Assembly (NCBI GenBank): GCA_022822265.1
Contig: JAJECA010000050.1
Location: 81,075 to 145,074, forward strand
Source: Acidimicrobiia bacterium
GTDB taxonomy: Bacteria > Actinomycetota > Acidimicrobiia > Acidimicrobiales > Bin134
Length of the DNA: 64,000 nt
Direction: 5' to 3'
Positions within the stretch are counted from its first letter, which is position 1. Each line of letters opens with the position of its first letter. The translations under genes were made by a program, and so were the position numbers. This document shows positions 3,783 to 60,529 of the stretch, piece after piece. A model generated the notes under the pieces. That model worked only from the letters and a program-made list of their open reading frames with translations, was not told where the DNA came from and searched no databases.

Positions 3783-3821
3783 TGGTCTGTCTGCCCGCCA
3801 GTGCGGGTGTGCGCAAATGGA

Positions 3822-8823: not shown

Positions 8824-9543
8824 CTAATCTGCGTCTCGGCGATCCCAGACGGGGATTCCCAGTTCCTGTTGAACCCCGTCGAACATGTTCTGGAGGATCT
8901 CCCGCAATTCGTCGGAATACTGGCTTAAGGCCTCCCGGCTCACCCGCCCCCGTTCGTCGACCGCGGGCGGGGCCAACGGTTCGCCCCAAACAAGCCGCAC
9001 TATGCGGGGCCGGGGCATCCGGACGCCGATGCCCATGGCCCGCTCTGTGCCGCCGATTGCCACCGGCACTACGGGCACCTGCGACTTGGCAGCCAGCCAG
9101 GCCACCCCATCCAGCAGCGGGTAGATGCGGGTGCCCGACTTTCGCTCCCCCTCGGGAAACACCACCAGCGGCTGCCCGCCCTCAAGCACCGTAAGCGCAG
9201 CCTTGAGGGCGCTGCGGTCGATGGTGTCGCGCCTCACGGGAAAGGCCCCCATGGTCACCAGGATCCAAGTGGTGATCGGACCGCGGAAGAGTCCGCTCTT
9301 GGCGAAATAGCGGAGCGGCCGGCCCGCCGATGCCCCGATGAGCGGGGTGTCCAAATTGGAGCGATGGGTGGGGGCGACAATCACCCCTCCCCGGCGGGGC
9401 ATATTGCGCCGGCCTCGGGTGTAGCAGCGGAAATAGGCCCCGAATACTGCTCGAGCCAGCCGCTGCACAAAGAAGTGGAAAACCACCCCGACCACCCGCC
9501 CCTTGGCCTCCAATTCCTCGGGGTGGAGCTCGACCTGGTTCAC
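8824..9543 (-). CDS. plsC: 1-acyl-sn-glycerol-3-phosphate acyltransferase
   Basis: HRSNLD (HxxxxD) and FPEGERK acyltransferase blocks. The start is GTG at 9543, in the downstream copy of a tandem duplication. Confidence 0.85.
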   Translation of the reverse strand: MNQVELHPEELEAKGRVVGVVFHFFVQRLARAVFGAYFRCYTRGRRNMPRRGGVIVAPTHRSNLDTPLIGASAGRPLRYFAKSGLFRGPITTWILVTMGAFPVRRDTIDRSALKAALTVLEGGQPLVVFPEGERKSGTRIYPLLDGVAWLAAKSQVPVVPVAIGGTERAMGIGVRMPRPRIVRLVWGEPLAPPAVDERGRVSREALSQYSDELREILQNMFDGVQQELGIPVWDRRDAD

Positions 9544-9584
9544 CTGGCCTCCAATTCCTCGGGGTGGAGCTCGACCTGGTTCAT
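9503..9584 (-). repeat. 2 x 41-nt tandem duplication of the plsC start region
   Basis: 9503-9543 and 9544-9584 differ only at their first and last nucleotides. Confidence 0.95.
9540..9584 (-). other. 14-codon uORF (MNQVELHPEELEAR) created by the duplication
   Basis: Its ATG at 9584 overlaps the cmk stop (ATGA). Its TGA at 9540-9542 overlaps the plsC GTG at 9541-9543 (GTGA). Confidence 0.35.
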
Positions 9585-10255
9585 CCCAATCGGGCGATCA
9601 GCTCGTCTACTACTTGGTCGACTGTGAGGTCGGTGGTGTCGATGTGAACGGCGTCGGGGGCCTGGATGAGCGGATCGTGCTGACGGGAGGAATCGGCTGC
9701 GTCTCTGGCCGCCAGATCGGCAGCCACCGTCTCATAGTCGAGCGCGCTCACCTCTCCGGCCCGTCGCTCGGCCCGGACCATGGCAGACGCGCTCAGATAA
9801 ACCTTCAACTCGGCGTCGGGAAACACCACCGTCCCGATGTCCCGACCCTCCAGAACGCCGCCGCCCCGTTCCATCACCCAAGCTCGCTGGCGCACCCGCA
9901 ACACGTCTCGAACACCGGAAATGGCCGCAACCGTGCTCACCGACCGGGTCACCTCCGGGCCTCTGATCTGGGTGGTGGCGTCCACACCGTCGACTATGAC
10001 CGAGGCGTCGTCAACCTGGATGTCGCTGTTGCGAGCCACCTCCACAATGGCGTCGGCATCGGCCAGGTCGACCTCTCGAGCCATAACGGCAAAGGCCACC
10101 GATCGATACATCGCGCCGGTGTCCAGATATTCCAGTCCCAGTCTCTCGGCCAGCCTCCGGGCCACCGTGGACTTGCCCGATCCGGCCGGGCCGTCGATGG
10201 CGATTACCCTCACACCCTCGCCTATCTGCCCGTCGGCGGCGCTCACGGCGTCCAT
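9581..10255 (-). CDS. cmk: Cytidylate kinase
   Basis: IAIDGPAGSGKSTVAR...LDTGAMYR. An alternative GTG start lies at 10213. Confidence 0.9.
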   Translation of the reverse strand: MDAVSAADGQIGEGVRVIAIDGPAGSGKSTVARRLAERLGLEYLDTGAMYRSVAFAVMAREVDLADADAIVEVARNSDIQVDDASVIVDGVDATTQIRGPEVTRSVSTVAAISGVRDVLRVRQRAWVMERGGGVLEGRDIGTVVFPDAELKVYLSASAMVRAERRAGEVSALDYETVAADLAARDAADSSRQHDPLIQAPDAVHIDTTDLTVDQVVDELIARLG

Positions 10256-11517
10256 CCTGTGCTGTGCTCCAGGTGGCGGGCAAAGCTCGGATAGCTCGTG
10301 TTCGTGGCCTCAAAACCCTCGACTGTCATCGAGCCGCGGCCCACTGCTCCGGCGATGGCCGCGGCCATGGCCATCCGGTGGTCTCCACGGGAGTCCACAG
10401 TACCGCTGCCCAGGGCTTCGGCGCGACCGACTCCGGTGATCGCCAGCATGTCGCCGTCGATCCGGCACTCCGCCCCGAGGCCGTCAAGCAGTTGGGCGAT
10501 GGCCACCACCCGATCGGACTCTTTGACCCGCAGTTCGCCGACCCCCTCAAAAGCGGTGTCCCCCTCAGCGGCCGCGGCGGCCACGGCCAGAATGGGCACC
10601 TCGTCAATGCAGCCCGGCAGCTCTTCAGCAGTCACCCGGGTTCCTTTGAGCTCACTGGATCGGGCCCTGACGTCACCCGAGGCCGAATCCACGGTTATGT
10701 CGGCGCCCATGCGCCGCAAGACCTCGATGAACCCTCCCCGAGCCTGTCCGAGATAGACGTTTTCCACCACAAGGTCGCTGTCGGGGGCTACGCAGGCGCC
10801 CACCACCCAGAATGCGGCCTGCGACGGGTCGCCGGGTACTTCGACATCGGGGGGTTCCACCTCTCCCGGCCACACGGTCACCGAAGAAGACCCACGCTCC
10901 AGCCTCACTCCGGCGGCGGCAAGCATCTCTTCGGTGTGCGCTCGGGTGGGAACCGCCTCGTGCACCGTGGTCGGCCCCTCGGCTCTTAGGGCGGCGAACA
11001 GCACCGCGCTCTTAACCTGGGCCGAGGCCACCGGCAAGGTGTATTCGATGCCCCGCAGCGGGCGGCCCTCGATGGTCAGAGGCGCCAGCGAGCCGTTCGC
11101 GCCGCTGCCGCTGATCGATGCTCCCATCGCGGTCAAAGGGTTGATGATCCGGTCCATGGGCCGCTGGCGTATTGATGCGTCTCCATCCAGTGTGGTGGTG
11201 AAGTCGAAGCCAGCCACCAACCCGGCCAGAAGCCGGATGCCGGTTCCGGAGTTCCCCAAGTCGATGGGGCTGCGGGCACCGCACACTCCCCCGGTGACAG
11301 TCACGTCGCCCGATTCCGCCATCGCCACTTGAGCACCCAGCGCCTCAACGGCATGGCGAGTGCGGACGACGTCGTCACCGTTGGACAAGCCTCTTATGGT
11401 GCACGGCCGCTGGCCCAGCGCAGCGATCATCAGCGCCCGGTGGGAGATCGACTTGTCGCCCGGCACTTGGAGCCGTCCGGTGAACTGGCGCTTCCCTTCC
11501 ACCGTGATGGCGGTCAC
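10243..11517 (-). CDS. aroA: 3-phosphoshikimate 1-carboxyvinyltransferase (EPSP synthase)
   Basis: VPGDKSISHRALM, LGNSGTGIRLL and RVKESDR motifs. GTG start. Confidence 0.92.
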   Translation of the reverse strand: MTAITVEGKRQFTGRLQVPGDKSISHRALMIAALGQRPCTIRGLSNGDDVVRTRHAVEALGAQVAMAESGDVTVTGGVCGARSPIDLGNSGTGIRLLAGLVAGFDFTTTLDGDASIRQRPMDRIINPLTAMGASISGSGANGSLAPLTIEGRPLRGIEYTLPVASAQVKSAVLFAALRAEGPTTVHEAVPTRAHTEEMLAAAGVRLERGSSSVTVWPGEVEPPDVEVPGDPSQAAFWVVGACVAPDSDLVVENVYLGQARGGFIEVLRRMGADITVDSASGDVRARSSELKGTRVTAEELPGCIDEVPILAVAAAAAEGDTAFEGVGELRVKESDRVVAIAQLLDGLGAECRIDGDMLAITGVGRAEALGSGTVDSRGDHRMAMAAAIAGAVGRGSMTVEGFEATNTSYPSFARHLEHSTGWTP

Positions 11518-11554
11518 GTCCGGACCCCCGCGCCCGGACGCTCCCCCAGAACGC

Positions 11555-12658
11555 TCACGACAGCACTCTCGAAGACGGGGCGTATCCCTGCTTCCGGAGG
11601 GCCTCCAACAGGCCGTCGGACGCCTCCGCGTTTACCACCAGGATGGCCACGCCTTGGCCGCCCTCCACCGAGTGGGCGATCTCCAGGTCGAAGATGTTCA
11701 CCCCGATATCGGTGGTGAGGCTGGTGATGCGGGCCAGCTCGCCGGGACGGTCGAACACCGGCACCCTCACCTCAGACAGCGAGACGTCCCGGTCCAGCCC
11801 GTAAGGCAGATGGGCTCGGGCACTTCTCGCCTGTTCTAGGAGCTCCAACAGCCCGCCCCGGTTGCCGTCTGACACCAGTGAGCGCACCTCGGCCAAGGCG
11901 GCGATAAAACGGTCGAGCACCGAGCAAATGGCCTCGGAGTTCTCATCGCAGATGTCAGGCCAGATTCCAGGGTGTCCAGAGGCGATGCGAGTCATGTCCC
12001 GGAATCCGCCCGCGGCCAGCCGCAACATCACCTGGTGTTCCTCAGAGCGCTCATCGGCCAAGGCCATGAGCGTGGCTGCGGTTAGATGGGGCACATGCGA
12101 GACCACCGCGACCAAGGCATCGTGGCGCTCCGGGGCCAGTGACACCACGTCAGCTCCCAAGGAGGCCACCACTGAACGGATTTGAACCAGGGAATCATCG
12201 TCGGTGTCGTCGGTGGGAGTGAGGACCCACACCGCGTTCTTGAACAAATCGGCCCGGGCCCCGGCCACCCCCTCCTGCTCGCTGCCGGCCATGGGGTGGC
12301 CGCCCACAAAGCGGGGGCTGGCCACCGAGGACACAATCGGGGCCTTCACGCTGCCCACATCGGTCACTGACCCGTTGCCCATTGCCAATGCCTTACGGGC
12401 CTCGGGGGCGGCCGCTCCCACCGGGGTGGCCACAAACGTGATGTCAGCATCGGTCGGCGGTCCAACCGCATCGAGAGCGCCTCGATTGAGCGCTTCCGCG
12501 GCCACCGCCTCGTCCTGGTCAGTGCCGGTCACCCACCAGCCCCGCTCCCGCAAGGCCAACCCGATGGAGCCTCCGATAAGCCCGGTGCCGACGATTGCGG
12601 CTCTGCCTGAACCTCCCGGCAGCCCGGTGCCGACGATTGCGGCCCGCTGAGTGGCCAT
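11555..12658 (-). CDS. tyrA: Prephenate dehydrogenase with C-terminal ACT domain
   Basis: Rossmann motif IVGTGLIGGSIG, GGHPMAGSE, and an ACT-like C-terminus. ATG at 12658 shares one nucleotide with the aroH stop (TGATG). The longer ORF reaching 12763 is an Arg-rich extension that overlaps aroH. Confidence 0.85.
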   Translation of the reverse strand: MATQRAAIVGTGLPGGSGRAAIVGTGLIGGSIGLALRERGWWVTGTDQDEAVAAEALNRGALDAVGPPTDADITFVATPVGAAAPEARKALAMGNGSVTDVGSVKAPIVSSVASPRFVGGHPMAGSEQEGVAGARADLFKNAVWVLTPTDDTDDDSLVQIRSVVASLGADVVSLAPERHDALVAVVSHVPHLTAATLMALADERSEEHQVMLRLAAGGFRDMTRIASGHPGIWPDICDENSEAICSVLDRFIAALAEVRSLVSDGNRGGLLELLEQARSARAHLPYGLDRDVSLSEVRVPVFDRPGELARITSLTTDIGVNIFDLEIAHSVEGGQGVAILVVNAEASDGLLEALRKQGYAPSSRVLS

Positions 12659-12662
12659 CACT
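12579..12662 (-). repeat. 42-nt in-frame tandem duplication at the tyrA N-terminus
   Basis: An exact 23-nt core (agcccggtgccgacgattgcggc) occurs at 12579-12601 and 12621-12643. The protein reads RAAIVGTGLPGGSG-RAAIVGTGLIGGSIG. Confidence 0.9.
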
Positions 12663-13032
12663 CGGGAAGGTCGTCGCGCAGGCCTCGTGCGCCTTCCAGG
12701 TAAATGTGGTGCAATTCGTCGCGCCCCCGCTCGGTGGTCAGATGGATCAGCACGCGCAGGCACAGCGGCGTTCCCTCTACGATGTCCAGCTCCTGGGCGC
12801 AGAGCAGAGGCACGTCGCCGAGGCCGAATTTTCGGGCCGCGGCCGCGGGAAAGGCCGAGTTGATGTCGGAGGTGGCGGTGAAGACAATGCTGATCAGGTC
12901 GTCGTGATGGATGTCGTTGCGGTCGAACAGCTCGGTCAACAGCGCGATGATCCGCTCCCCCATATGCTCGGGAGTATCGACATCAATGGTGGTGGCGCCC
13001 CGCAGGGCGCGGACGGCGCTGCTCACGGCCAA
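12658..13032 (-). CDS. aroH: AroH-type chorismate mutase
   Basis: RALRGATT..., FTATSDINSAFPA, and a size of about 124 aa are typical of monofunctional AroH. Confidence 0.85.
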   Translation of the reverse strand: MAVSSAVRALRGATTIDVDTPEHMGERIIALLTELFDRNDIHHDDLISIVFTATSDINSAFPAAAARKFGLGDVPLLCAQELDIVEGTPLCLRVLIHLTTERGRDELHHIYLEGARGLRDDLPE

Positions 13033-13064
13033 AATTGTACCGACCCCTGGATGCGGCCCTTAAC

Positions 13065-13787
13065 TCAGTTGCCGGTGAGCTCCGCCCCCTGGCGCTCCAG
13101 CTTCCGGACTTCGCTCTGACTCAGCTCTCGCCACTCGCCCGGCGGGAGCCTTCGATCGGCCAGCGGGCCGATGCGGGTGCGAACCAGGCGGATCACAGGA
13201 TGGCCTATCGCCTCGCACATCCGCCGAACCAGTCGGTTGCGGCCCTCGTGGACCACGATGCGGATGACCGATGGCTCGGGCAACGACACCGCAACTACCC
13301 GAGCCATGCCGTCATCCAACTCCACTCCCTCGCGCAGCCTCCTCAGCGACCCGCGGCCAGGACGGCCCTCGACGTGGGCCAGGTACTCCTTGTCGACCCC
13401 GAAAGACGGATGGGTCAGTCGGTGGGTCAGCCCCCCGTCGTTGGTGAGCAGCAATAGCCCCTCGCTGTCGGCGTCTAGGCGGCCCACCGGGAAGACCCGG
13501 GGCTCGCTCGGCACCATTGCCACCACGGTGGGGCGCCCCTGGGGATCGGAAGCGGTAGTGACCACTCCGGGGGGCTTGTTCAGCAGGTAGTACACCAGAT
13601 CGGTCCGCAGCCCCACCGGGACGCCGTCTACCTCAACCGCGTCGTGCTCTGGATCGATCCGCTGGCCGAGCCGGGCGGGCTGCCCGTTCACTGAAATGCG
13701 GCCCTCGGCCACCATCTCCTCGACTGCCCGGCGACTGGCCACTCCGGCAGCGGCCAGGACCTTCTGAATCCGCTCAGGCTCGCTCAC
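13065..13787 (-). CDS. rluB: rRNA pseudouridine synthase (RluB/RsuA family)
   Basis: S4 domain RIQKVLAAAGVASRR and catalytic GRLDADSEGLLLLTNDG. The GTG start overlaps the scpB stop. Confidence 0.88.
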   Translation of the reverse strand: MSEPERIQKVLAAAGVASRRAVEEMVAEGRISVNGQPARLGQRIDPEHDAVEVDGVPVGLRTDLVYYLLNKPPGVVTTASDPQGRPTVVAMVPSEPRVFPVGRLDADSEGLLLLTNDGGLTHRLTHPSFGVDKEYLAHVEGRPGRGSLRRLREGVELDDGMARVVAVSLPEPSVIRIVVHEGRNRLVRRMCEAIGHPVIRLVRTRIGPLADRRLPPGEWRELSQSEVRKLERQGAELTGN

Positions 13788-14404
13788 ACTGTCGGGACAT
13801 CGCTGTTGCCGCTTTCAGGCTCTCGCATAGGGCGGCTGTCGGCCATCAGACTTGTCTCCAAGGCCTCGATCACCTCGGCGCCGGGCACAAAATCGACCAG
13901 CGGGGGTAGTTCGTCGATGGAGTCGAGCCCCAGCCGCTCCAAGAAGGCCGGCGTGGTGGCAAATAGGCGGGCATTGCCCGGGCCAGGATCTCGGCCCACT
14001 TCCTGCACCAGTCCCCGATGCTGGAGCGTGCGCATGGCGCCCTCGGCGTTCACCCCCCGGATGGCGGACACCTGGGCCCTGGACAGCGGTTGCTTGTAGG
14101 CCACAATGGCCAAGGTCTCCAGCGCGGCCGAGGAGAGACGGGAGCTTTGGCCGCTGACCACAAACCGCTTCACGTACGGCTCGGCATCGGGATGGCTGCG
14201 GAACCGGTAGCCACCGGCCACCCGGACCAGTTCGAATCCCCGGCCCTCGGCTCGGTATTCCTCGGCCAACTGGTCGCAGATGGCATCCACCTGACCGGTG
14301 GGAATCTCAAAGAGCTGGGCCATGAGCCCCGGCGGGACCGGCTCCTCGGCGACCATCACAATGGCCTCCACCGCCTGGCGGGCCTCAATGCTCTCATCCG
14401 TCAT
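13784..14404 (-). CDS. scpB: Segregation and condensation protein B
   Basis: IEAIVMVAEEPV..., LSRAQVSAIRGVN, and position directly downstream of scpA. Confidence 0.88.
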   Translation of the reverse strand: MTDESIEARQAVEAIVMVAEEPVPPGLMAQLFEIPTGQVDAICDQLAEEYRAEGRGFELVRVAGGYRFRSHPDAEPYVKRFVVSGQSSRLSSAALETLAIVAYKQPLSRAQVSAIRGVNAEGAMRTLQHRGLVQEVGRDPGPGNARLFATTPAFLERLGLDSIDELPPLVDFVPGAEVIEALETSLMADSRPMREPESGNSDVPTV

Positions 14405-14473
14405 AGGAGTCCACCCCTGCCAGCGTCTCGAATCTCATCCGTCATAGGAGTCCACTCCTGCCAATGCCTCGTC
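14392..14473 (-). repeat. 2 x 41-nt tandem duplication of the scpA-end/scpB-start junction
   Basis: The 31-nt cores at 14392-14422 and 14433-14463 differ at 1 nt. The remaining 10 nt of each unit have diverged. Confidence 0.9.
14401..14445 (-). other. 14-codon uORF (MTDEIRDAGRGGLL) created by the duplication
   Basis: The ATG at 14445 lies inside the scpA 3' end. The TGA at 14401-14403 overlaps the scpB ATG at 14402-14404 (ATGA). Confidence 0.35.
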
Positions 14474-15244
14474 GAAGTCGGCCTCGGCGCTCCAGGTGAT
14501 GGCGATGCGGCCAAAGGTCGCGGCCTGCAACACATCCACCAAGCCCCGCTTGTAGAGCTCCAGAACGGCCAGGAAGTACACCACCACCTCAATACCGGTC
14601 TCCAGATCCTCGGTCAGCTCCCGGAACCCCACCGTCCCTATCTCGGGCAGGCGGTGCATAAGGTCGGCGGCCACCTCGTCCACGCTGATGGGGATGTCGG
14701 TGATGTGCTGTACGTTCACCCGCGGCGTGGGCCGAGAAGCAGTGGCCCGCAGAAATGCGGCTCTGAGATCTTCGGGACCGATCCCCTCCAAGAAGTCGGG
14801 CACGAGGTCTACATAGCGCTCGTCGGGACCGGCCGTGCGGGGCAGGCCGCGCCCGGCCACTTCAGCCAACTGCTCGAGGACCTGGGCAACCCCTTTGAAG
14901 GTCTGGCACTCCAGCAGCCGAGCCAGTAGCAGGTCGCGCTCCGACCACAGGGCCAATTCCTCGTCCAGATCCAGTGACTCGCTGTCGGGCAGCAGGCGGC
15001 TGCTTTTGAGCTGTACCAGCGTGGCCGCGATCAACAAGAACTCGGTGGCCACGCCCAAGTTGAGCTGCTCCATCTTGTTGAGCTCGGCCAGGTAGGCGTC
15101 CACAATGTCGCCCACCCTCACTTCATAGAGATCGACCTCGTCCTTCAATATGAGGTGCAAAAGCAGGTCGAAGGGGCCCTCGAAGACCTCGGTTCGCACT
15201 TCGAACGGACCTTCGGACACCTCCGTTCTCACCTCTGCGACCAC
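14435..15244 (-). CDS. scpA: Segregation and condensation protein A
   Basis: GPFDLLLHLILKDEVDLYEV is the ScpA N-terminal signature. GTG start at 15244. Confidence 0.88.
   Translation of the reverse strand: MVAEVRTEVSEGPFEVRTEVFEGPFDLLLHLILKDEVDLYEVRVGDIVDAYLAELNKMEQLNLGVATEFLLIAATLVQLKSSRLLPDSESLDLDEELALWSERDLLLARLLECQTFKGVAQVLEQLAEVAGRGLPRTAGPDERYVDLVPDFLEGIGPEDLRAAFLRATASRPTPRVNVQHITDIPISVDEVAADLMHRLPEIGTVGFRELTEDLETGIEVVVYFLAVLELYKRGLVDVLQAATFGRIAITWSAEADFDEALAGVDSYDG
15170..15235 (-). repeat. Diverged 2 x 33-nt tandem duplication at the scpA N-terminus
   Basis: The protein reads EVRTEVSEGPF-EVRTEVFEGPF. The DNA units 15170-15202 and 15203-15235 differ at 9 of 33 positions. Confidence 0.7.
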
Positions 15245-15340
15245 CCGCCAAGTGTAGAACTCGCCATCTGCCGGTTCGGGGTTTTGGGTTCAGGGCTGGC
15301 ACCTAGGGATTTCGCGATCCAGGCGGGTAGTTTGACCGGC

Positions 15341-16327
15341 GTGGCGCGAGTGTTCTCTGGTATCCAGCCGTCCGGCGGCATGCACCTGGGCAACTTGTTG
15401 GGTGCGCTGCGCAACTGGGTGGCATACCAGCACGAGCACGACGCGGTGTACTGCGTGGTAGATCTCCACGCCCTCACCACCGCGCCCGATCCGGGCGAGC
15501 TGCGGGACAACACCCTGGCCGCGGCGGCAATGCTCCTCTCGGTGGGCATCGATCCCGATAAGTCCACCTTGTTCGTGCAGAGCTCGGTGAGCGAGCACGC
15601 CGAGCTGGCCTGGATGATGGAGTGCACGGTGGGCTTCGGCGAACTGCGCCGGATGACCCAGTTCAAGGACAAGTCCGACCGTTCTGAATTCGTGTCCGCC
15701 GGCCTGTTCACCTATCCCGCCCTTCAGGCGTCGGACATCTTGCTGTACGACACCGACTTGGTGCCGGTGGGCGACGACCAGCGCCAGCACATCGAGCTCT
15801 GCCGGGATATCGCCGAGCGCTTCAACCGCCGCTACGGCGACACCTTCACCGTGCCCGCCCACGTAATCCCCGCCGCGGGGGCCCGGGTCATGGACCTCCA
15901 GAATCCGGCCGACAAGATGTCCAAGTCGTTGGAGTCGGCCGGCACCGTCGGCGTGCTGGAGGAATCCGAGAGCGTGACCCGCAAGTTCAAGCGGGCAGTA
16001 ACCGACAGCGAAAACGAAGTGCGCTACGACCCCGAGACCAAACCGGGGGTGTCCAACTTGCTGGGCATCCTGGCATCGGCCACCGGGCGAACTCCGGAGT
16101 CGGTTGCCGCCGACTATGCCCAATACGGGCCGCTCAAAGCCGACACCGCCGACGCGGTGAACGAGCTGCTCTTCCCCATCAGGGAGCGATACGCCGAACT
16201 GTCGTCCGACCCGGGAGAGATCGCCCGGGTACTGGCCACCGGGGCCGACAAGGCCCGCACGGTGGCAGCAGCCACCTTGGAGCGGGCCAGAACCAACGCA
16301 GGGCTGATCCCCCGCTCCCCCGCCTGA
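15341..16327 (+). CDS. trpS: Tryptophan--tRNA ligase
   Basis: SGIQPSGGMHLGNLLGA (HIGH region) and KMSKS. The ORF reaches back to 15155 but overlaps scpA. GTG at 15341 is chosen; TTG at 15332 or GTG at 15350 are possible. Confidence 0.88.
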   Translation: MARVFSGIQPSGGMHLGNLLGALRNWVAYQHEHDAVYCVVDLHALTTAPDPGELRDNTLAAAAMLLSVGIDPDKSTLFVQSSVSEHAELAWMMECTVGFGELRRMTQFKDKSDRSEFVSAGLFTYPALQASDILLYDTDLVPVGDDQRQHIELCRDIAERFNRRYGDTFTVPAHVIPAAGARVMDLQNPADKMSKSLESAGTVGVLEESESVTRKFKRAVTDSENEVRYDPETKPGVSNLLGILASATGRTPESVAADYAQYGPLKADTADAVNELLFPIRERYAELSSDPGEIARVLATGADKARTVAAATLERARTNAGLIPRSPA

Positions 16328-33879: not shown

Positions 33880-34200
33880 TCAGCTGAGGCCGATGGCCAG
33901 GATTGAGCCCCAGATAGTCACGGCGAATCCGATCAAGGTAAACACCATTGTGCGAGTTTGCTGGGCGAACATCTGCTTCATCTCGCCCCGCAGATTCGTG
34001 AACTCGGCCTGGGCCCATTCCTTGAGGGCCCTGATGTCGTCTTTAGTGGCTCTGATGTCGTCTTTAGTGGCTAGGTTGTACCAATAGGTGGGGGGAAGGC
34101 TCTCCATGAGTGTTCTCGCCTCCTCCTCTCCTAGGACTTCGGTTAGACGCTGCATCAGCGCTAGGCGCCGATCCTCGCCAATGGGCTCACTCACAGGCAT
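33880..34200 (-). CDS. Small coiled-coil protein with C-terminal TM helix (DUF1640/CCDC90-like)
   Basis: LATKDDIRATKDDIRALKEWAQAEFTNLRGEM, then TMVFTLIGFAVTIWGSILAIGL. Confidence 0.55.
   Translation of the reverse strand: MPVSEPIGEDRRLALMQRLTEVLGEEEARTLMESLPPTYWYNLATKDDIRATKDDIRALKEWAQAEFTNLRGEMKQMFAQQTRTMVFTLIGFAVTIWGSILAIGLS
34030..34071 (-). repeat. 2 x 21-nt perfect tandem repeat (one heptad, ATKDDIR, duplicated)
   Basis: ctgatgtcgtctttagtggc occurs at 34031-34050 and 34052-34071. Confidence 0.95.
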
Positions 34201-36147: not shown

Positions 36148-37224
36148 ATGCCGGAGCATCTGGTGATCGACGTGGACGGCCACGTGTTCGAGCCCGACGA
36201 GCTGTGGGAGCAGTACCTACCGGCCCGGTTCCACGAGCGCCGGCCCCGGATGATCACCGACGAGCAGGGCACCACCCGCTATGTGATCGAAGGCAGGGTG
36301 ATCCCCCCGGGGACTGGGGTGGGCGCCTGGGCTCCTGAGGGCATCCGGGAGTCCACCACCCTCCGGGAGGGCGGGGTCGACTCGGGGCTCCGGCTGGCCG
36401 ACATGTACACCGAGGGCATCGACATCGCCGTGCTGTACGGGGCCATGTCCCTCGGTCTTTACGCCGGAGCAGACCAAGAGCTGACTGTGGCCTGCTGTCG
36501 GGCCTACAACAACTGGCTGGCCGACTGGTGCTCGGCCGACCCCAAGCGCTTGCGGGGCACCCCGGCACTACCGCTGAAGTGGATGGACGAGGCGGTGGCC
36601 GAGGCCGAGCGATGTGTGACCGAGCTGGGATTCGTGTCGCTGACCGTTCCCTGCGCGGTGGGCGACCGCAACCCAGACCACCCCGACAACGACCCGCTCT
36701 ACGACCTAGCCGAGCAGCTCAACGTGCCATTGGGCTTCCACGCCGGCGGCTGCCGGTTCGCCAACGACCGGTTCACCGACGCCTACGCCCAGCTCCACGT
36801 GATCGAGTTCCCGTTCAACCTGATGTTCGCGGCCACCACCCTGATCTGCGGCGGGGTGTTTGAGCGGTTCAAGCGGCTCCGGGTGGCTTTGCTGGAAGGC
36901 GGCGTGGGCTGGGTGCCCCACACCTTGGAGCGACTCAACGAGCACTACGAATATCGAAGCCACGAGTTCGGCGCCATCACCAAGCCGCCCGGCGAGTACC
37001 TGGCGGAGGGGCGGCTGTTCGTTTCCACTGAGGGGGAACACGGCTTGCCCCAGGTGATCGAGCAGATCGGCTGCGACATCATCGTGTGGGCATCGGACTA
37101 CCCCCACTGGGACAGCGACTTCCCCACCAGCGTGACCGGCGTGACTGATCGCCCCGACCTGGCCGATACCCACAAGCAGGCCATTTTCGAGACCAACCCC
37201 AAGCGGCTCTTCGGATGGGATTGA
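36148..37224 (+). CDS. Amidohydrolase_2 family protein
   Basis: VIDVDGHVFEP..., ASDYPHWDS. Confidence 0.85.
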   Translation: MPEHLVIDVDGHVFEPDELWEQYLPARFHERRPRMITDEQGTTRYVIEGRVIPPGTGVGAWAPEGIRESTTLREGGVDSGLRLADMYTEGIDIAVLYGAMSLGLYAGADQELTVACCRAYNNWLADWCSADPKRLRGTPALPLKWMDEAVAEAERCVTELGFVSLTVPCAVGDRNPDHPDNDPLYDLAEQLNVPLGFHAGGCRFANDRFTDAYAQLHVIEFPFNLMFAATTLICGGVFERFKRLRVALLEGGVGWVPHTLERLNEHYEYRSHEFGAITKPPGEYLAEGRLFVSTEGEHGLPQVIEQIGCDIIVWASDYPHWDSDFPTSVTGVTDRPDLADTHKQAIFETNPKRLFGWD

Positions 37225-37228
37225 GCAC

Positions 37229-38269
37229 ATGAGCCTGATCACAACTGCCGACACCATCGAAGAGTGGGTGGAGTTGGCCCATGCCGAAGGGCTGACCGAC
37301 GGGTTGCCGGTGTATCCCCCTACCCGAGCGGCAGTAAACGCTCTGGTGGAGGCCTCAGGCCGCGATCCCGGCCAGCTTCTGGGGGCCATCCCCCCGAGGG
37401 GCGGGGCGGCCACCGTGGAAGTGGTGGCGGCCAACGCGGCCATGGCCGGCTGTCGGCCCGAGCACTTCGAGGTGGTGCTTGCCGCCGTAGAGGCCATGCT
37501 GGAGGACCGCTTCAACCTGCGGGGGGTGGTCACCACCACCCATCCGTGCTGGCCGTTGGTCATTGTGTCGGGACCAATCGTGGAGCAGCTCGGTATGGCC
37601 CACACCGAATCGGTGTTCAGCGGTGGCGGGGCCCATGCCAATGCGGCCATCGGACGGGCCGTGAAGCTGCTGTTGTGGAACGCCGGCGGCGCCACCCCCG
37701 GCGAGCCGGTCAAAGAGGTGTTCGGCCATCCCGGCCGCTATGCCTTCTGCGTGGCCGAGTCGCCGGCCAGCCCGTGGCCACCGCTGCACCAAGCCCGAGG
37801 CATCGACGCAGTCAGCGGGATCACGGTGTTCGCCTGCGAGTCCCCCACCAGCGTGGCCATGTGGGGCGCAGACGACACGCCCGTCAACCGCCTGGCGCAA
37901 CTGGCCGATGCCATGGCCATCAAGGGGTGCAACAACACCCACACCATGGGCGAGACCTTGGTGGTGCTCACTCCAAATGAGGCCCGTCACATGGCCGAGA
38001 ACGGCTACGACCGCAGCGCGGTGCAAGAGCAACTCTGGCAGCAGGCCCGGCGGCGCATCGGCGACCTCCTCTCCCCCGGCGTTCCGCCCTATGCGTGGTG
38101 GCCCGACTGGGTGGACACCGGCGATCCCGACACGCTGGTGCCGGTCACCGAGCGGCCCGAAGACATCCACGTAATGGTCACCGGCGCCGAATCCATCCCC
38201 TGGATGGCGGTTTGCGCCGGCTGGGGCAACCTGGGCGGCTACGCGGTGAGCCGGGCGCTGGATGGGTAA
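37229..38269 (+). CDS. Hypothetical protein (TDGLPVYPPT motif)
   Basis: 346-aa ORF beginning 4 nt after the amidohydrolase and ending 18 nt before the UGSC gene. Family not recognised. Confidence 0.6.
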   Translation: MSLITTADTIEEWVELAHAEGLTDGLPVYPPTRAAVNALVEASGRDPGQLLGAIPPRGGAATVEVVAANAAMAGCRPEHFEVVLAAVEAMLEDRFNLRGVVTTTHPCWPLVIVSGPIVEQLGMAHTESVFSGGGAHANAAIGRAVKLLLWNAGGATPGEPVKEVFGHPGRYAFCVAESPASPWPPLHQARGIDAVSGITVFACESPTSVAMWGADDTPVNRLAQLADAMAIKGCNNTHTMGETLVVLTPNEARHMAENGYDRSAVQEQLWQQARRRIGDLLSPGVPPYAWWPDWVDTGDPDTLVPVTERPEDIHVMVTGAESIPWMAVCAGWGNLGGYAVSRALDG

Positions 38270-44076: not shown

Positions 44077-46452
44077 ATGGCTACTGAGACCGCGGCAAGC
44101 GCAGCCACCGAGGTAGACCCAGCGCGGGGGCTCACTGCCGAGCAGGTGGCCGAGCGGGTGGCCGCCGGGCGCACCAACCAGGTGCCGGACGCCCCCGTGC
44201 GTACGCTGCCCCAGATTCTGCGGGCCAACGTGTTCTCCCCGGTCAACGGGATCATGCTGGCGCTGTTCGCCGCCATCCTGGTGGCTGGGTTCCCCCGCGA
44301 CGGCTTGTTCGTGGGGGTGGTGGTGTCCAACGCAGTGATCGGCGTGGCCCAGGAGATCCGGGCCAAGCGCGAGCTCGACAAGCTGGCGGTGCTCAGCGCA
44401 CCCAAGGCCCGGGTGGTGCGCGACGTAGAGGTGTCCGAAGTCGGGGTAAGTGAGGTGGTGGCCGACGAGGTGCTGGAGCTGGCCCCTGGCGACCAGGTGG
44501 TGGTGGACGGGGTGGTGCTTGCCTCCTCCGGGCTGGAGGCCGATGAGTCGCTGCTCACCGGCGAGGCCGATCCCATTGAGAAGGAACCGGGCGACGAGCT
44601 TCTGTCGGGCAGCTTCGTAGCAGCGGGCAGCGGGCGGTACCAGGCCACCCGCATCGGTGCTGAGTCGTACGCCAGCTCGCTGTCGGAAGAGGCCAAGCGC
44701 TTCACCCTGGTCAACAGCGAACTGCGCCGGGGCATCGACACCGTGCTGCGCTGGCTGATCATCATCATCCCCCCGGCCTCGGCTCTGCTGATATTGGTGC
44801 TGCTCGACACCGAGGACCGCTGGCAGAACGCCTTGCAGGGCACAGTGGCCGCCGCGGTGGCCATGGTCCCCGACGGGCTGGTACTGCTCACCAGCCTGTC
44901 CTTTGTGGCCGGCGTCATTGCATTGGCCCGACGACGGGCGTTGGCCAAAGAACTGGCTACCGTGGAGTTGCTGGCCCGTACCGACGTGCTGTGCCTGGAC
45001 AAGACCGGCACCATCACCACCGGACACATCAGCTTCGGCGAGGTGGAGAGCCTGCCCGGAGTCGATCCCAATTTGGTGGCCACCGCCCTCGGGGCCATGG
45101 CCCACGCTGATGAGGCCCCCAACGCCACCATGCTGGCGGTGCGCGACGCCTACCCTGCTCCCGAAGACGGCGACACCGGCGGCTGGGCGCCGGTGGGTTC
45201 CACTCCGTTCTCCAGCGCCCGCAAGTGGTCCGCCATGGAGTTCCGCAGTCACGGCGCCTTCTACTTCGGCGCCCCCGACGTGATCGCCGGCGATCTGCCC
45301 GATGTGATGAACCGAGTGGCGACCCACGCAGAAGCGGGCCGGCGCACCCTTCTGCTGGCCCGCAGCCCCGAGCCCCTGGCCGATGAGACCCTGCCCGAAA
45401 GCCGGACCCCACTGGCCCTCATCCTGCTAGAAGACACGATCCGCCCCGATGCCCCCGAGATCCTGGCCTTCTTCCGGGAGCAGGGGGTGAACCTCAAGGT
45501 GATCTCCGGCGACCACACCGCGACGGTGGCCGCGGTGGCCCAGCGGGCCGGCATCCCCAATGCCCACAACCACATCGACGCCCGGGAGCTGCCCGAGGAC
45601 ACCGACGAGATGGCCGCGGCCCTGGCCGACAACGCCGTGTTCGGCCGAGTCACCCCCCAGCAGAAGCAGGCCATGGTGGGCGCGCTCCAGTCGAGGGGCC
45701 ACACCGTGGCCATGACCGGCGACGGCGTAAACGACGTGTTGGCCCTGAAGAACGCCGACATGGGCATCGCCATGGGCAGCGGCTCGGCCTCCACCCGGGC
45801 GGTGGCCCAACTGGTGCTGCTCGACAACTCGTTCGCCACTCTGCCCGAGGTGCTGGCCCAGGGGCGCAAGGTGATCAACAACGTGGAGCGGGTGGCCAAC
45901 CTGTTCGTGACCAAGGCGGCCTACGCCGTGCTGCTAACCGTGCTGGTGGGCATCTTCACCGTGGAATATCCGTTCCTCCCCCGCCACCTCACCCTGGTGG
46001 GCACATTCTCCATCGGCGTGCCCGGCCTATTCCTCGCCTTGGCTCCCAGCACGGAGCTGATCCGGCCCGGCTTTCTGACCAGGGTGCTGCGGTTCTCCGT
46101 TCCCGCTGGAGTGCTGGCCGCGGTGGCGTCCTTCTTCGTCTACGAGATCGCCCGCCGCCATGACGAGGTCACCCTGCCCGAGGCCCGCACCGTGGCCACA
46201 TTCACCTTGCTGGGGGTCGGGCTGGTGATCTTGGTGGTGATCAGCCGCCCGCTGCGACCGTGGAAGATCGGCCTGGCCGTGGCCATGGGTGGGTCGTATC
46301 TGATCGTGATGGTGTGGCCATGGGCCCGGAGTTTCTTCGAGCTGGACGTGCCTCCGGCATGGATGTGGATCCCCACCATCGCGGCAGTGGTGATCGCCGG
46401 TTGCGGGGTGGTCACCATCCCCCGGGCCTTGAGGAGATACCAGGACCAGTGA
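44077..46452 (+). CDS. Cation-transporting P-type ATPase (HAD-IC, CtpE-like)
   Basis: LTGEADP, CLDKTGTITTG, MTGDGVNDVLALKNADMGIAMG, and about 10 TM segments. Confidence 0.92.
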   Translation: MATETAASAATEVDPARGLTAEQVAERVAAGRTNQVPDAPVRTLPQILRANVFSPVNGIMLALFAAILVAGFPRDGLFVGVVVSNAVIGVAQEIRAKRELDKLAVLSAPKARVVRDVEVSEVGVSEVVADEVLELAPGDQVVVDGVVLASSGLEADESLLTGEADPIEKEPGDELLSGSFVAAGSGRYQATRIGAESYASSLSEEAKRFTLVNSELRRGIDTVLRWLIIIIPPASALLILVLLDTEDRWQNALQGTVAAAVAMVPDGLVLLTSLSFVAGVIALARRRALAKELATVELLARTDVLCLDKTGTITTGHISFGEVESLPGVDPNLVATALGAMAHADEAPNATMLAVRDAYPAPEDGDTGGWAPVGSTPFSSARKWSAMEFRSHGAFYFGAPDVIAGDLPDVMNRVATHAEAGRRTLLLARSPEPLADETLPESRTPLALILLEDTIRPDAPEILAFFREQGVNLKVISGDHTATVAAVAQRAGIPNAHNHIDARELPEDTDEMAAALADNAVFGRVTPQQKQAMVGALQSRGHTVAMTGDGVNDVLALKNADMGIAMGSGSASTRAVAQLVLLDNSFATLPEVLAQGRKVINNVERVANLFVTKAAYAVLLTVLVGIFTVEYPFLPRHLTLVGTFSIGVPGLFLALAPSTELIRPGFLTRVLRFSVPAGVLAAVASFFVYEIARRHDEVTLPEARTVATFTLLGVGLVILVVISRPLRPWKIGLAVAMGGSYLIVMVWPWARSFFELDVPPAWMWIPTIAAVVIAGCGVVTIPRALRRYQDQ

Positions 46453-47282
46453 CTGACGACTACCAGGACATCGCCTATTCGGTAGACGACCGGGTGGCGG
46501 TGATCACGCTGAACCGGCCCGAGAAGCTGAACGCATTCAGCACGCTGATGGGCACCGAGCTAGCCGACGCCCTGCGCCGCAGCGACGCCGACGAAGAGGT
46601 TCGGGCAGTGGTGATCACCGGTGCGGGACGGGCGTTTTGCGCCGGGGCCGACTTTTCCGGCGGACCGGGCGTTTTCGGCGCCCCCAACCCCGACAGCTTC
46701 CGCTCTGACGCTCTTGAGTTCCACCCCTGGGACGTGCGCAAGCCGGTCATCGCCGCCATCAACGGCCATGCGGTGGGCCTGGGCATGACCATGGCCCTTC
46801 AATGCGACATCCGCTACATCGCCGCCGACGCCCGATGGGGCATCGTGCAGAACCGCCGGGGAGTGCTGCCCGACTTCCGGTCCCACTGGACCCTGCCCCG
46901 CACCGTGGGCCACGCCAAGGCATTGGAGATCCTGCTCACCGGGCAGATGTATACCGGCGAAGAGGCCGCCCAGATGGGCTTGGCCACCGCCGCCCTGCCT
47001 GCCGATGAGGTATTGCCCACCGCCTTGGAGACCGCCCGCGACATTGCTGTCAACGTGGCCCCGGTGTCGGTGGCCCTCAGCAAGCGCCTCTTGTGGACCA
47101 CCTCACCCGGCGACCAAGGGGTGATCAACGAGTTGGAGCGCCGCATTCACCTCCACGTCATGGGCCAGCCCGACGCCACCGAGGGGGTTATGGCCTTTAT
47201 GGAGAAGCGCCCCCCGGAATGGTCGCTCACCCTGGCCGACCACTGGCCCGACTGGATGCCCTCTGCCACTGAGGACGAGTAG
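46449..47282 (+). CDS. Enoyl-CoA hydratase/isomerase family
   Basis: ITLNRPEKLNAF, GAGRAFCAGADF, AAINGHAVGLG. The GTG start overlaps the ATPase stop (GTGA). Confidence 0.85.
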   Translation: MTDDYQDIAYSVDDRVAVITLNRPEKLNAFSTLMGTELADALRRSDADEEVRAVVITGAGRAFCAGADFSGGPGVFGAPNPDSFRSDALEFHPWDVRKPVIAAINGHAVGLGMTMALQCDIRYIAADARWGIVQNRRGVLPDFRSHWTLPRTVGHAKALEILLTGQMYTGEEAAQMGLATAALPADEVLPTALETARDIAVNVAPVSVALSKRLLWTTSPGDQGVINELERRIHLHVMGQPDATEGVMAFMEKRPPEWSLTLADHWPDWMPSATEDE

Positions 47283-47329
47283 AGCCACCCAAGACGAGTA
47301 GAGCCGCTGAAGGTCTGTAGGGTCGGGCC

Positions 47330-59079: not shown

Positions 59080-59697
59080 ATGAACCAACCAGCCGCCGAG
59101 GTCGGCGTGTTCGAGGCCATGCACACCCAGAGGGCGGTGCGGCGCTATTTGCCCGACCCGGTGCCCGAAGAGCTGATCACCCAAGTGCTGGACGCCGCCA
59201 TCCGAGCACCCAGCGCCATCAACGGGCAGTTCGCCCGATTCGTGGTGGTCACCGACCCCGAGAAACGCCGCCAATTGGCCGATCTCTATCTCGACGCCCA
59301 GCAGGAGTCGTACAACAACCCGTCGGCGGCGGGCACCGAGTGGCTGCGGGGCCAGGAGGCCGGGATCGTCGAAAAGGCCGCCAAGTTCGCCCGTGAAGTG
59401 GGCAATGTGCCGGTGTTCATCATCGTGTGCTCCACCCAGCGGGGAGTGAGCCACTCGGTTTACCCTGCGGTGCAGAACCTATTGGTGGCGGCCCGCAGCC
59501 TGGGGTTGGGCACGGTGCTGACCACGCTGCACGCCTTCCGGGCCAACGAGGTTCGGGCCGTGTTGGGCATCCCCGACGACGTCCACATCGTGTGCGGCAT
59601 CCCGATGGGATGGCCGGCGGTGCCCTTTGGGCCTGTCCGGCGCCGGCCGTTGTCTGAAGTGGCGTATTGGAACCAGTGGGAGGACCACAATGAGTGA
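59080..59697 (+). CDS. Nitroreductase family protein
   Basis: MHTQRAVRRYLPDPVPEELI..VLDAAIRAPSA, VQNLLVAARSLGLGT. Confidence 0.85.
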   Translation: MNQPAAEVGVFEAMHTQRAVRRYLPDPVPEELITQVLDAAIRAPSAINGQFARFVVVTDPEKRRQLADLYLDAQQESYNNPSAAGTEWLRGQEAGIVEKAAKFAREVGNVPVFIIVCSTQRGVSHSVYPAVQNLLVAARSLGLGTVLTTLHAFRANEVRAVLGIPDDVHIVCGIPMGWPAVPFGPVRRRPLSEVAYWNQWEDHNE

Positions 59698-60529
59698 ACA
59701 GAGTTTTGGGCCGTTCTCTTTGAGCGTTGTCGATGGCGTGGGCTGGGTGGTGATCGACCATCCCCCCAAACAGCTGGTTGACGGCCCCCTGATCGGCGGG
59801 CTCATGGGGCTGCTTGACTCGGTTGAGGCTGATGAGCAAGTGCATGTCTTGGTGTTCGAGAGCGCCGACCCAGATTTCTTCTTGATGCATGGCGACGTGG
59901 AGCAGATCCTGGCCATGGAGGCATCTCCGGAGGTGCCGACCGAGCCCAACTTTGCCGCGGCTACGTTCGACCGCTGCCGCACCATGGGGGTGGCCACCAT
60001 CGGAATGATCGACGGCATCGCCCGGGGCGGCGGCTCGGAGTTCCTTCTGTCGCTCGACATGCGCTTTGCCGGGCCTCGCACCGTGTTGGGCCAGCCCGAG
60101 GTGGCCATGGGCATCATCCCCGGGGCCAGCGGCACCCAGCGGCTGGCCCGATTGGTGGGCCGCAGCCGGGCGCTGGAGATCGTCTTGTCGGGCAACGACG
60201 TAACTGCCGAGGAGGCTGCGGCCATCGGTTACGTCAACCGGGTGCTGCCCTCCGATCAGCTCCGAGCCCACACTGCCCAAGTGGCCCGCCGAATTGCCGC
60301 CTCGCCGAAGTTGTCCATCGCCAAGGCCAAGCAAGCCGTGGACGCCGCGTTGGACCCAGTGGCGCCGGGACTCTTGACCGAGACCCAGGCCATGATGGCC
60401 TGCTCAGCCACCGGCCAGCATGTGCCCCTCATGCAGCGCTTCCTAGACGCCGGCGGCCAAACCCGCGAGGTCGAACGTGACCCCGCAGCAATGGCTGCGG
60501 TGATCGACGAGATGCTGGAAATCGACTAG
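59690..60529 (+). CDS. Enoyl-CoA hydratase/isomerase family
   Basis: VVIDHPPKQ..., IGMIDGIARGGGSEF. The ATG overlaps the nitroreductase 3' end by 8 nt. Confidence 0.8.
   Translation: MSEQSFGPFSLSVVDGVGWVVIDHPPKQLVDGPLIGGLMGLLDSVEADEQVHVLVFESADPDFFLMHGDVEQILAMEASPEVPTEPNFAAATFDRCRTMGVATIGMIDGIARGGGSEFLLSLDMRFAGPRTVLGQPEVAMGIIPGASGTQRLARLVGRSRALEIVLSGNDVTAEEAAAIGYVNRVLPSDQLRAHTAQVARRIAASPKLSIAKAKQAVDAALDPVAPGLLTETQAMMACSATGQHVPLMQRFLDAGGQTREVERDPAAMAAVIDEMLEID

Follow-up and report, generated by a model that had tools for sequence, protein, structure and literature searches.

Short tandem duplications at gene starts and predicted relay reading frames in a housekeeping operon of a sponge-associated Acidimicrobiia bacterium

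The stretch analyzed here (the window) comprises 64 kb of contig JAJECA010000050.1 from an Acidimicrobiia bacterium, and its minus strand carries one operon, consisting of scpA, scpB, an rluB-like gene, an aroH-type gene, tyrA, aroA, cmk and a plsC-like gene, in which short tandem duplications lie at several gene starts and junctions. The genome of the window (W) was compared with five related genomes of the same clade (L001 to L005), a sister lineage (L081 to L083, L082 being the genome cited below) and an outgroup lineage (L006). The public genomes nearest to W are metagenome-assembled genomes, including "Candidatus Poriferisocius", and the sequence was found in sponge metagenome runs; the host is an uncultured, sponge-associated member of the Acidimicrobiia. 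Gene names were checked with NCBIfam and Pfam profiles, and the operon reads as follows.

14435 to 15244, minus strand: scpA (profile match).
13784 to 14404, minus strand: scpB (TIGR00281, above cut-off).
13065 to 13787, minus strand: rluB-like pseudouridine synthase (profile match); its GTG start overlaps the scpB stop (GTGA).
12658 to 13032, minus strand: aroH-type chorismate mutase (profile match); its stop overlaps the tyrA ATG by 1 nucleotide (nt; TGATG).
11555 to 12658, minus strand: tyrA, prephenate dehydrogenase with a 14-residue N-terminal repeat (profile match).
10243 to 11517, minus strand: aroA, 3-phosphoshikimate 1-carboxyvinyltransferase (profile match).
9581 to 10255, minus strand: cmk, (d)CMP kinase (TIGR00017, above cut-off).
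8824 to 9543, minus strand: plsC-like acyltransferase (profile match and sequence); its start is the GTG in the downstream copy of a duplication.

Repeats in the 64 kb were detected with Tandem Repeats Finder, a repeat finder and our own period scan, which agreed with one another. In all three scans, the strongest short-range direct repeats of the whole window were those that an initial annotation, made from the sequence alone, had listed at this operon:

9585 to 9545 and 9544 to 9504, minus strand: cmk/plsC duplication, 41 nt, 40/41 identical, binomial p ~2e-22.
14473 to 14433 and 14432 to 14392, minus strand: scpA/scpB duplication, 41 nt, 35/41 identical, p ~5e-15.
12643 to 12602 and 12601 to 12560, minus strand: tyrA N-terminus duplication, 42 nt, 32/42 identical, p ~2e-9.
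15232 to 15200 and 15199 to 15167, minus strand: scpA N-terminus duplication, 33 nt, 25/33 identical, p ~2e-7.

Each cmk/plsC copy contains a start codon and the first 13 codons of plsC, and the sole mismatch sets an ATG in the upstream copy against a GTG in the downstream copy. The scpA/scpB unit covers approximately the last 10 codons of scpA and the first four of scpB, and the two tyrA copies are identical over their first 23 nt. Taken alone, the scpA N-terminal repeat would be borderline, but it is kept in five relatives and missing from two outgroup lineages.

We then computed gapped self-alignments at all 65 predicted gene starts in the window, using 200 positions inside genes as controls. 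The four sites took ranks 1 to 4 of the 65 starts, with scores of 78 (cmk/plsC), 58 (scpA/scpB), 46 (tyrA) and 30 (scpA N-terminus); the highest control score was 26, with the 99th percentile at 23. The initial annotation had claimed five duplications, and the fifth, at scpB/rluB, scored only 16. Its broader statements that the duplications sit at gene starts, cluster in this operon and are missing from the right half of the window agree with the scan: 4/8 operon starts carry one compared to 1/57 of the other starts, and the right half yielded only a 19-nt tandem repeat at 47265-47302. No further junction repeat occurs in the window; this one spans the TAG stop of the gene at 46449-47282, with a degenerate third copy before the ATG of the next gene at 47330.

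Two further repeats in the window lie within reading frames. A near-perfect 21-nt tandem duplication (34027-34072, 2.2 copies) is in frame inside a small predicted minus-strand gene (33880-34200). On the minus strand at 299-521, an open reading frame (ORF; 276-587) without a Pfam match ends C-terminally in repeats of ~11 residues (consensus near GVNSIGLVAIG), which correspond to an array of 33-nt period; this array is kept in the closest relative (L001, 21087-21218).

The lengths of the duplications determine what they do to the reading frames. Since 41 = 3 x 13 + 2, the ATG of the upstream cmk/plsC copy reads through 14 codons to a TGA overlapping the GTG in the copy downstream. At scpA/scpB, the ancestral state, found as a single copy in L082 and L006, is an 11-nt overlap of the form ATGAxGGxTGA; after the 41-nt duplication, the ATG of the upstream copy likewise opens 14 codons that end in a TGA overlapping the scpB ATG. 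Both 41-nt events are thus 2 mod 3 in length, so that each makes a 14-codon ORF (hereafter a relay ORF) running from at or beside the upstream stop to an xTGA over the true start. An additional relay ORF, again of 14 codons, was found at tyrA/aroA, a site that the initial annotation did not list.

9540 to 9584, minus strand: cmk/plsC relay ORF, MNQVELHPEELEAR and stop; the ATG sits on the cmk stop (ATGA), the TGA on the plsC GTG at 9543 (GTGA).
14401 to 14445, minus strand: scpA/scpB relay ORF, MTDEIRDAGRGGLL and stop; the start lies 8 nt before the scpA stop, and the final TGA overlaps the ATG of scpB at 14404 (ATGA).
14394 to 14438, minus strand: alternative scpA/scpB relay, beginning at the ATGA on the scpA stop.
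11514 to 11558, minus strand: tyrA/aroA relay ORF, VSVLGERPGAGVRT and stop, with a 41-nt spacer at 11518-11558; its GTG lies on the tyrA stop and its TGA on the aroA GTG (both GTGA).

At every link of the operon relays examined, stop and start overlap by 4 nt or 1 nt on the same strand. The scpA/scpB relay is exactly 14 codons long, with its stop/start overlap, in W, L001, L002, L003 and L004, and encodes five different peptides; the L003 and L004 copies are only ~50% alike, with the spacing still at 41. This constancy under sequence drift argues for a constraint on the frame. The relay ORFs probably hand ribosomes from gene to gene, judging from these overlaps. To this extent the short relay upstream ORFs proposed by the initial annotation are borne out: both 41-nt events create ORFs linked by ATGA or GTGA, and at scpA/scpB the frame is kept in five genomes.

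The tyrA/aroA spacer is exactly 41 nt in W, L001, L002 and L005, and in L005 it has this length despite a different 3' half and a different aroA allele. In L003, L004 and L082 the two genes meet in a direct GTGA overlap without a spacer. We assume that the spacer, too, may be a duplication. At scpB/rluB, local alignment reached p = 0.02 in W, with no signal in L002 and L003, and by similarity the site is indistinguishable from chance. Nevertheless, scpB is a net 36 nt longer in the clade than in L082 at exactly this spot, and the distance from an in-frame ATG (13828) to the rluB GTG (13787) downstream of it is exactly 41 nt.

13788 to 13828, minus strand: candidate old 41-nt duplication, since absorbed into the C-terminal end of scpB (MREPESGNSDVPTV and stop).

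The length of the scpB tail varies among close strains: at 13813-13833, contigs from two sequencing runs (X2 and X5) show insertions or deletions relative to the window, and the tail is longer in L001.

The other two duplications, of 42 nt in tyrA and 33 nt in scpA, are 0 mod 3 and hence add in-frame N-terminal repeats. In TyrA, the duplicated segment is AAIVGTGL plus six residues, which corresponds to the Rossmann GxGxxG strand-loop. In ScpA, the repeat reads VRTEVSEGPFE / VRTEVFEGPFD. The family profiles of both proteins start matching at the second copy, for TyrA from residue 19-20.

A GGAGG motif, read from the sequence, lies 4 nt 5' of the plsC GTG start (9543). On the minus strand, TACACT precedes the scpA GTG (15245-15262) and TACAAT lies ~8 nt before the aroH GTG (13033-13064); both motifs, spotted by eye in alignments, are kept across the clade and in the single-copy relatives compared. 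With a conserved TACACT 7 nt upstream of its GTG, the scpA transcript is probably leaderless, and the conservation of the two motifs suggests leaderless transcripts and an internal promoter in the operon. A sigma-70 promoter scan found nothing relevant and did not call either motif, and no terminator-like sites were found at any of the operon junctions examined. We considered a regulatory leader peptide or attenuator and rejected it, given that the relay peptides copy the N-termini of neighboring genes and that terminator-like sites were not found at the junctions. The sole RNA run contains 8% of the words of the 501-nt stretch searched, which is too little to use. Elsewhere in the window, mini-ORFs of three and nine codons overlap the stop and start of both neighbors (37224-37229 and 59697-59720) with no repeat, and such mini-ORFs (1-44 codons) are common in the Acidimicrobiia loci scanned.

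The repeats persist in independent assemblies. In run X1, the exact 41-nt repeat interrupts the contigs assembled at k=31, as it should, but the joint of the two copies is bridged by a full-depth unitig of 62 nt, and one contig of 5,491 nt reproduces 9554-15044 with zero differences. A contig from a different study (X5) crosses the plsC repeat without gaps. Duplications are also present across L001 to L005, whose contig names point to different assemblers (k141_, NODE_ and contig_ styles); two of these assemblies are probably based on long reads, namely L003 and L005, of which one is a 3.4-Mb contig and the other was submitted as an entire chromosome. No copy-number variants were seen in the contigs of four sponge runs, although contigs drop rare variants.

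The related genomes allow the events to be placed on a tree, which per-gene identities resolve roughly as (((W, L001), (L003, L004)), (L002, L005)), followed by L081 to L083 and then L006. In both of the latter lineages all four sites are single-copy, and the gene ends found there are orthologous to the units; thus, each unit is a copy of its local gene junction. The distribution is as follows.

scpA, 33 nt: present in W and L001 to L005; absent in L082 and L006.
scpA/scpB, 41 nt: present in W and L001 to L005; absent in L082 and L006.
tyrA, 42 nt: present in W, L001 and L004; absent in L002, L003, L005, L082 and L006.
cmk/plsC, 41 nt, and the tyrA/aroA spacer: present in W, L001, L002 and L005; absent in L003, L004 and L082.
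36-nt repeat at the rluB 3' end: present in L002 (x2) and L005 (x3); absent in the others.

This comparison with relatives, which the initial annotation had called for, shows that the events arose on several branches, that copies are lost and that arrays expand. For example, scpA/scpB has four 41-nt copies in L005 compared to two in L002, and tyrA is duplicated in L004 and single-copy in its sister L003. The copies share genome-specific substitutions: AACCAG occurs in both W copies and AGCCAA in both L001 copies, and an Ile vs Val substitution is common to both tyrA copies of L004. Such sharing indicates concerted evolution of the copies, presumably by conversion or by rounds of expansion and contraction. 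Using ancestral sequences inferred from relatives, we found microhomology at the breakpoints of 2-6 nt at scpA/scpB (ACCGAG or AC) and 3-4 nt at tyrA (CGG). The origin of the plsC GTG is equally parsimonious by mutation or at the joint, each costing one substitution.

The locus also shows signs of recombination, for example at aroA. The aroA of L005 is 75% identical to that of W, vs 88% for L002. Beside this diverged allele, the cmk start of L005 is duplicated in frame (39 nt, copies unlike each other), and the sequence suggests that the duplication at this aroA/cmk junction is a recombination scar. The same genome carries a perfect in-frame 39-nt x 3.4 array inside der (15786-15917). A 69-nt repeat of 1.9-2.7 copies occurs in L003 (17712-17900) and L004 (13721-13852) and is absent in the window; its site corresponds to approximately window position 3800, at the convergent 3' ends of the genes for a SpoIIE-type phosphatase and a DEAD-box helicase.

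To place these events in a wider context, we scanned 80 loci around this operon from other Acidimicrobiia together with the window (1.39 Mb) for tandem duplications of 18-120 nt. Of the 54 strong duplications found, 22 lie within 60 nt of a predicted start, compared to 5.8 expected. With the clade left out, 38 events remain, of which 15 are near starts (4.1 expected), 13 near stops (4.0 expected) and 14 deep inside genes (29.3 expected), and 13 of these 14 have a period divisible by 3. The excess at boundaries and the in-frame intragenic events fit purifying selection acting as a filter on random duplications, rather than targeting. Proximity to starts is thus not special to this locus, being found along with proximity to stops in other lineages, and the class-wide pattern is the signature of survivorship.

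The relay design is not confined to the clade. In an unrelated Acidimicrobiales genome (L033, 8254-8786), nine 59-nt units lie between aroH and tyrA and form a full junction minisatellite; from the aroH stop, six successive ORFs (40, 20, 20, 21, 20 and 20 codons) are chained by GTGA. In another locus (L066), there is a 20-nt relay at aroA. These relays arose independently outside the clade. All four clear junction-spanning events (41, 41, 59 and 20 nt) are 2 mod 3. A general preference for 14 codons was not seen in other lineages, and 14 stands out in this clade only. The operon itself was rejected as a general hotspot in Acidimicrobiia: 22 of the 54 duplications fall in its 34.5% of the sequence, a share of duplications that drops to ~34% once shared events are taken out, and there is no enrichment outside the clade. 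Head-on conflict between replication and transcription was likewise rejected, as the GC skew of the plus strand is steadily negative over 1-24 kb, which makes the minus-strand operon co-directional with replication.

The clade itself is an outlier. Among 88 loci, the number of operon starts with strong self-similarity is zero in 61, one in 19 and two in four, three in L001 and L002, and four in W and L005; no locus outside the clade has more than two. For the genes flanking the operon in the clade, only ~1/52 starts has such a repeat, and the remaining 50 kb of W give no sign of a genome-wide excess and hold no 33-42-nt duplication. The clade events measure 33, 36, 39, 39, 41, 41, 41 and 42 nt, and only 3/38 events outside the clade fall within 33-42 nt, a range that we picked post hoc and that rests on small counts. 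In other lineages, periods span 18-118 nt and relay ORFs 1-44 codons. The preference for 41-42 nt proposed in the initial annotation is therefore not general, and it is only within this clade that the range is narrow (33-42 nt). The initial annotation also named no described mechanism with this preferred length; for the length this still applies, whereas for the architecture a mechanism is described in the mycobacterial MIRU repeats (PMC12548453).

The explanation that we favor, with a probability of roughly 0.65, combines ordinary short tandem duplication, a filter on frame and position, and relay ORFs that keep translation coupled. DNA around cistron starts would be duplicated by replication slippage or by microhomology-mediated template switching, and the place and length of each duplication would decide whether it survives. 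The copies lie head to tail without a spacer and relatives have a single unit, as local tandem duplication predicts. At an xTGA overlap, a 2 mod 3 duplication that contains the start codon would be self-correcting: the upstream copy would become a short ORF from at or beside the upstream stop to a TGA overlapping the true start in the downstream copy, and termination-reinitiation, which is established at overlaps of 4 nt (PMC6728339; PMC12548453), could pass the ribosome from the upstream gene through the 14-codon relay to the downstream gene. This logic holds at any copy number, and the number of units could therefore rise and fall as in a minisatellite while the operon stays intact. Duplications of 0 mod 3, such as those of 42 nt in tyrA and 33 nt in scpA, would add a tolerated N-terminal repeat. 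Events that pass the filter would be close to neutral.

Several observations weigh against this explanation. Repeat similarity was not found at the tyrA/aroA spacer (p = 0.46 in W, 0.95 in L001 and 0.11 in L002), and the plsC breakpoint shows only 0-1 nt of microhomology. The plsC relay of L002 and L005 stops 8 nt too soon, at a TAG located 5 nt ahead of the GTG, so that the exact overlap is not strictly kept, and with GGAGG before the plsC GTG, initiation there could be independent and the relay ORF a by-product. Survivorship also does not explain why 4-5 events fall in eight consecutive genes of this clade, nor why all of the operon events measure 33-42 nt and three or four relays exactly 41.

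An alternative that we consider rather unlikely, but that fares best among the others, is adaptive re-tuning, in which a relay ORF or N-terminal repeat is selected for a changed translation ratio between neighbors or for freeing overlapping coding ends, such as the 11 nt shared by scpA and scpB. The length and frame of the scpA/scpB and tyrA/aroA relays are indeed kept across genomes despite heavy divergence, the 11-nt scpA/scpB overlap becomes a clean 4-nt overlap after duplication, the plsC duplication puts GGAGG just upstream of the new GTG start, and the events are clustered in one operon. On the other hand, copies were lost without obvious harm (tyrA in L003; plsC and tyrA/aroA in L003 and L004), L002 and L005 have a shortened plsC relay, and the class-wide pattern is what a passive filter predicts.

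The clustering and sizes could also reflect a lineage-specific mutational process with a preferred length of ~33-42 nt (modal 41) at junctions, for example template switching linked to the RNA polymerase and a terminating ribosome behind it, or single-stranded flaps whose length is that of one SSB tetramer. Mutation and not selection would then set size and place. Such a process would be compatible with the relay mechanism, yet we regard it as unlikely. It would account for operon events that all fall within the range (33, 36, 39, 41, 41, 41 and 42 nt, with the 39 x 3.4 der array of L005 in addition), for the scarcity of such lengths in other lineages (3/38), for the in-frame events, which share the range though they are free of the relay arithmetic, and for the fact that every junction event has one breakpoint no more than 1-3 nt away from the stop codon of the upstream gene. 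The frame rule would also permit relays of 35, 38 or 44 nt, which makes the repeated 41 suggestive. Yet the range is post hoc, the sample small and the detection thresholds vary by period; no 33-42-nt duplication occurs in the other 50 kb of W, events of 61 nt and 69 nt lie nearby, and no known enzyme or complex has such a ruler on DNA. More doubtful again is the specific version in which a clade-specific process with a ruler of ~33-42 nt (modal 41) acts at cistron junctions, with one breakpoint at the upstream stop. If true, the translation-transcription machinery or a fixed-length single-strand intermediate would shape the place and length of duplications, and locally born relay units might be starting material for interspersed families such as MIRUs. 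Should the clustering and the size range hold genome-wide, they would point to an undescribed, length-biased duplication process.

We find it improbable that the repeats are scars of allelic replacement, in which exchange with diverged relatives stops close to gene boundaries and illegitimate joining preserves both the donor and the recipient copy of the boundary. The L005 aroA allele (75% identical to W; 88% for L002) adjoining the cmk-start duplication with unlike copies, the mosaic identities along the locus and the single phylogenetic distribution shared by the plsC and tyrA/aroA features would fit such scars, but the W and L001 copies are nearly identical and share genome-specific substitutions, which fits duplication in place and conversion but not two alleles, and the exact head-to-tail repeats are of equal length in all carriers. 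That a mobile, MIRU-like repeat family inserted itself at start codons is very improbable: such insertion would give the same architecture, a unit ORF coupled to the gene by a 4-nt overlap (PMC12548453), and the host phylum is also Actinomycetota, but every unit copies its own locus, as the single-copy orthologues show, and the units are mutually dissimilar and occur nowhere else in 1.47 Mb. Hardly worth entertaining is an assembly or polishing artefact, for although short exact tandem repeats can come from misassembly and periods of 33 and 41 are near common k-mer sizes, the copies have diverged in a frame-preserving manner and recur in assemblies of different assembler styles and in contigs of another study, with a full-depth unitig over the joint.

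If ordinary duplication filtered by frame and position is correct, the operon offers a natural example of how an overlapping junction can be lengthened, even to a multi-copy array, without breaking translational coupling, as each copy of any 2 mod 3 duplication that includes the start codon regains the stop/start overlap. This would provide a simple and plausible origin for MIRU-like intercistronic minisatellites and a reason for their tolerance in essential operons. The findings are also a warning for annotation: a start may be assigned to the wrong copy, false ORFs of 14 codons appear, and TyrA and ScpA carry N-terminal repeats.

A literature search on start-proximal tandem duplications and junction minisatellites returned only the MIRU analogy and no description of locally born junction duplications, and a preprint on short overlaps between genes is silent on duplications. 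Slipped-strand or microhomology-mediated duplications and the contingency repeats near 5' gene ends resemble the present repeats in their head-to-tail copies, partial microhomology, expansion and contraction, and concerted evolution. The units described here are far longer than simple-sequence repeats, and changes in copy number are frame-neutral rather than phase-variable, since each unit restores the frame. Translational coupling at ATGA, GTGA and TGATG overlaps is well documented (PMC6728339; PMC10666635; PMC12548453), and the notion of a short ORF that delivers the ribosome to the next gene has been described in a review. Every link here is likewise an overlap of 4 nt (or 1 nt) on one strand, but the short ORF, as predicted from sequence, derives from duplicated opening codons of the downstream gene itself, and three of equal length occur in one operon.

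The closest known system is thus the MIRU of mycobacteria, a repeat found at start codons with an internal ORF coupled to the gene by a 4-nt overlap (Supply et al., 1997, as summarised in PMC12548453); its units are 40-100 bp long and located in operons (PMC3635867). As with MIRUs, head-to-tail arrays lie at intercistronic operon junctions of an actinobacterial genome (41 nt x2 in W, 41 nt x4 in L005 and 59 nt x9 in L033), the ends of the unit ORF overlap the flanking stop and start by 4 nt (ATGA or GTGA at both relay ends), and copy number differs among related species-level genomes (2 vs 4 and 2 vs 3; L002/L005, L003/L004). MIRU copy number varies among strains, whereas within-species polymorphism was not seen here in the contigs of four runs, which drop rare variants, and the host belongs to the Acidimicrobiia and not to Mycobacterium. 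MIRUs are an interspersed family at many loci and are thought to be mobile; by contrast, the units of this operon are unrelated to one another, each derives from its own junction, and no dispersed family was found in the 64 kb of W and 1.4 Mb of relatives searched, where units match only their own orthologous locus. On the basis of these sequence comparisons, the units would work like MIRUs and are not members of the MIRU family.

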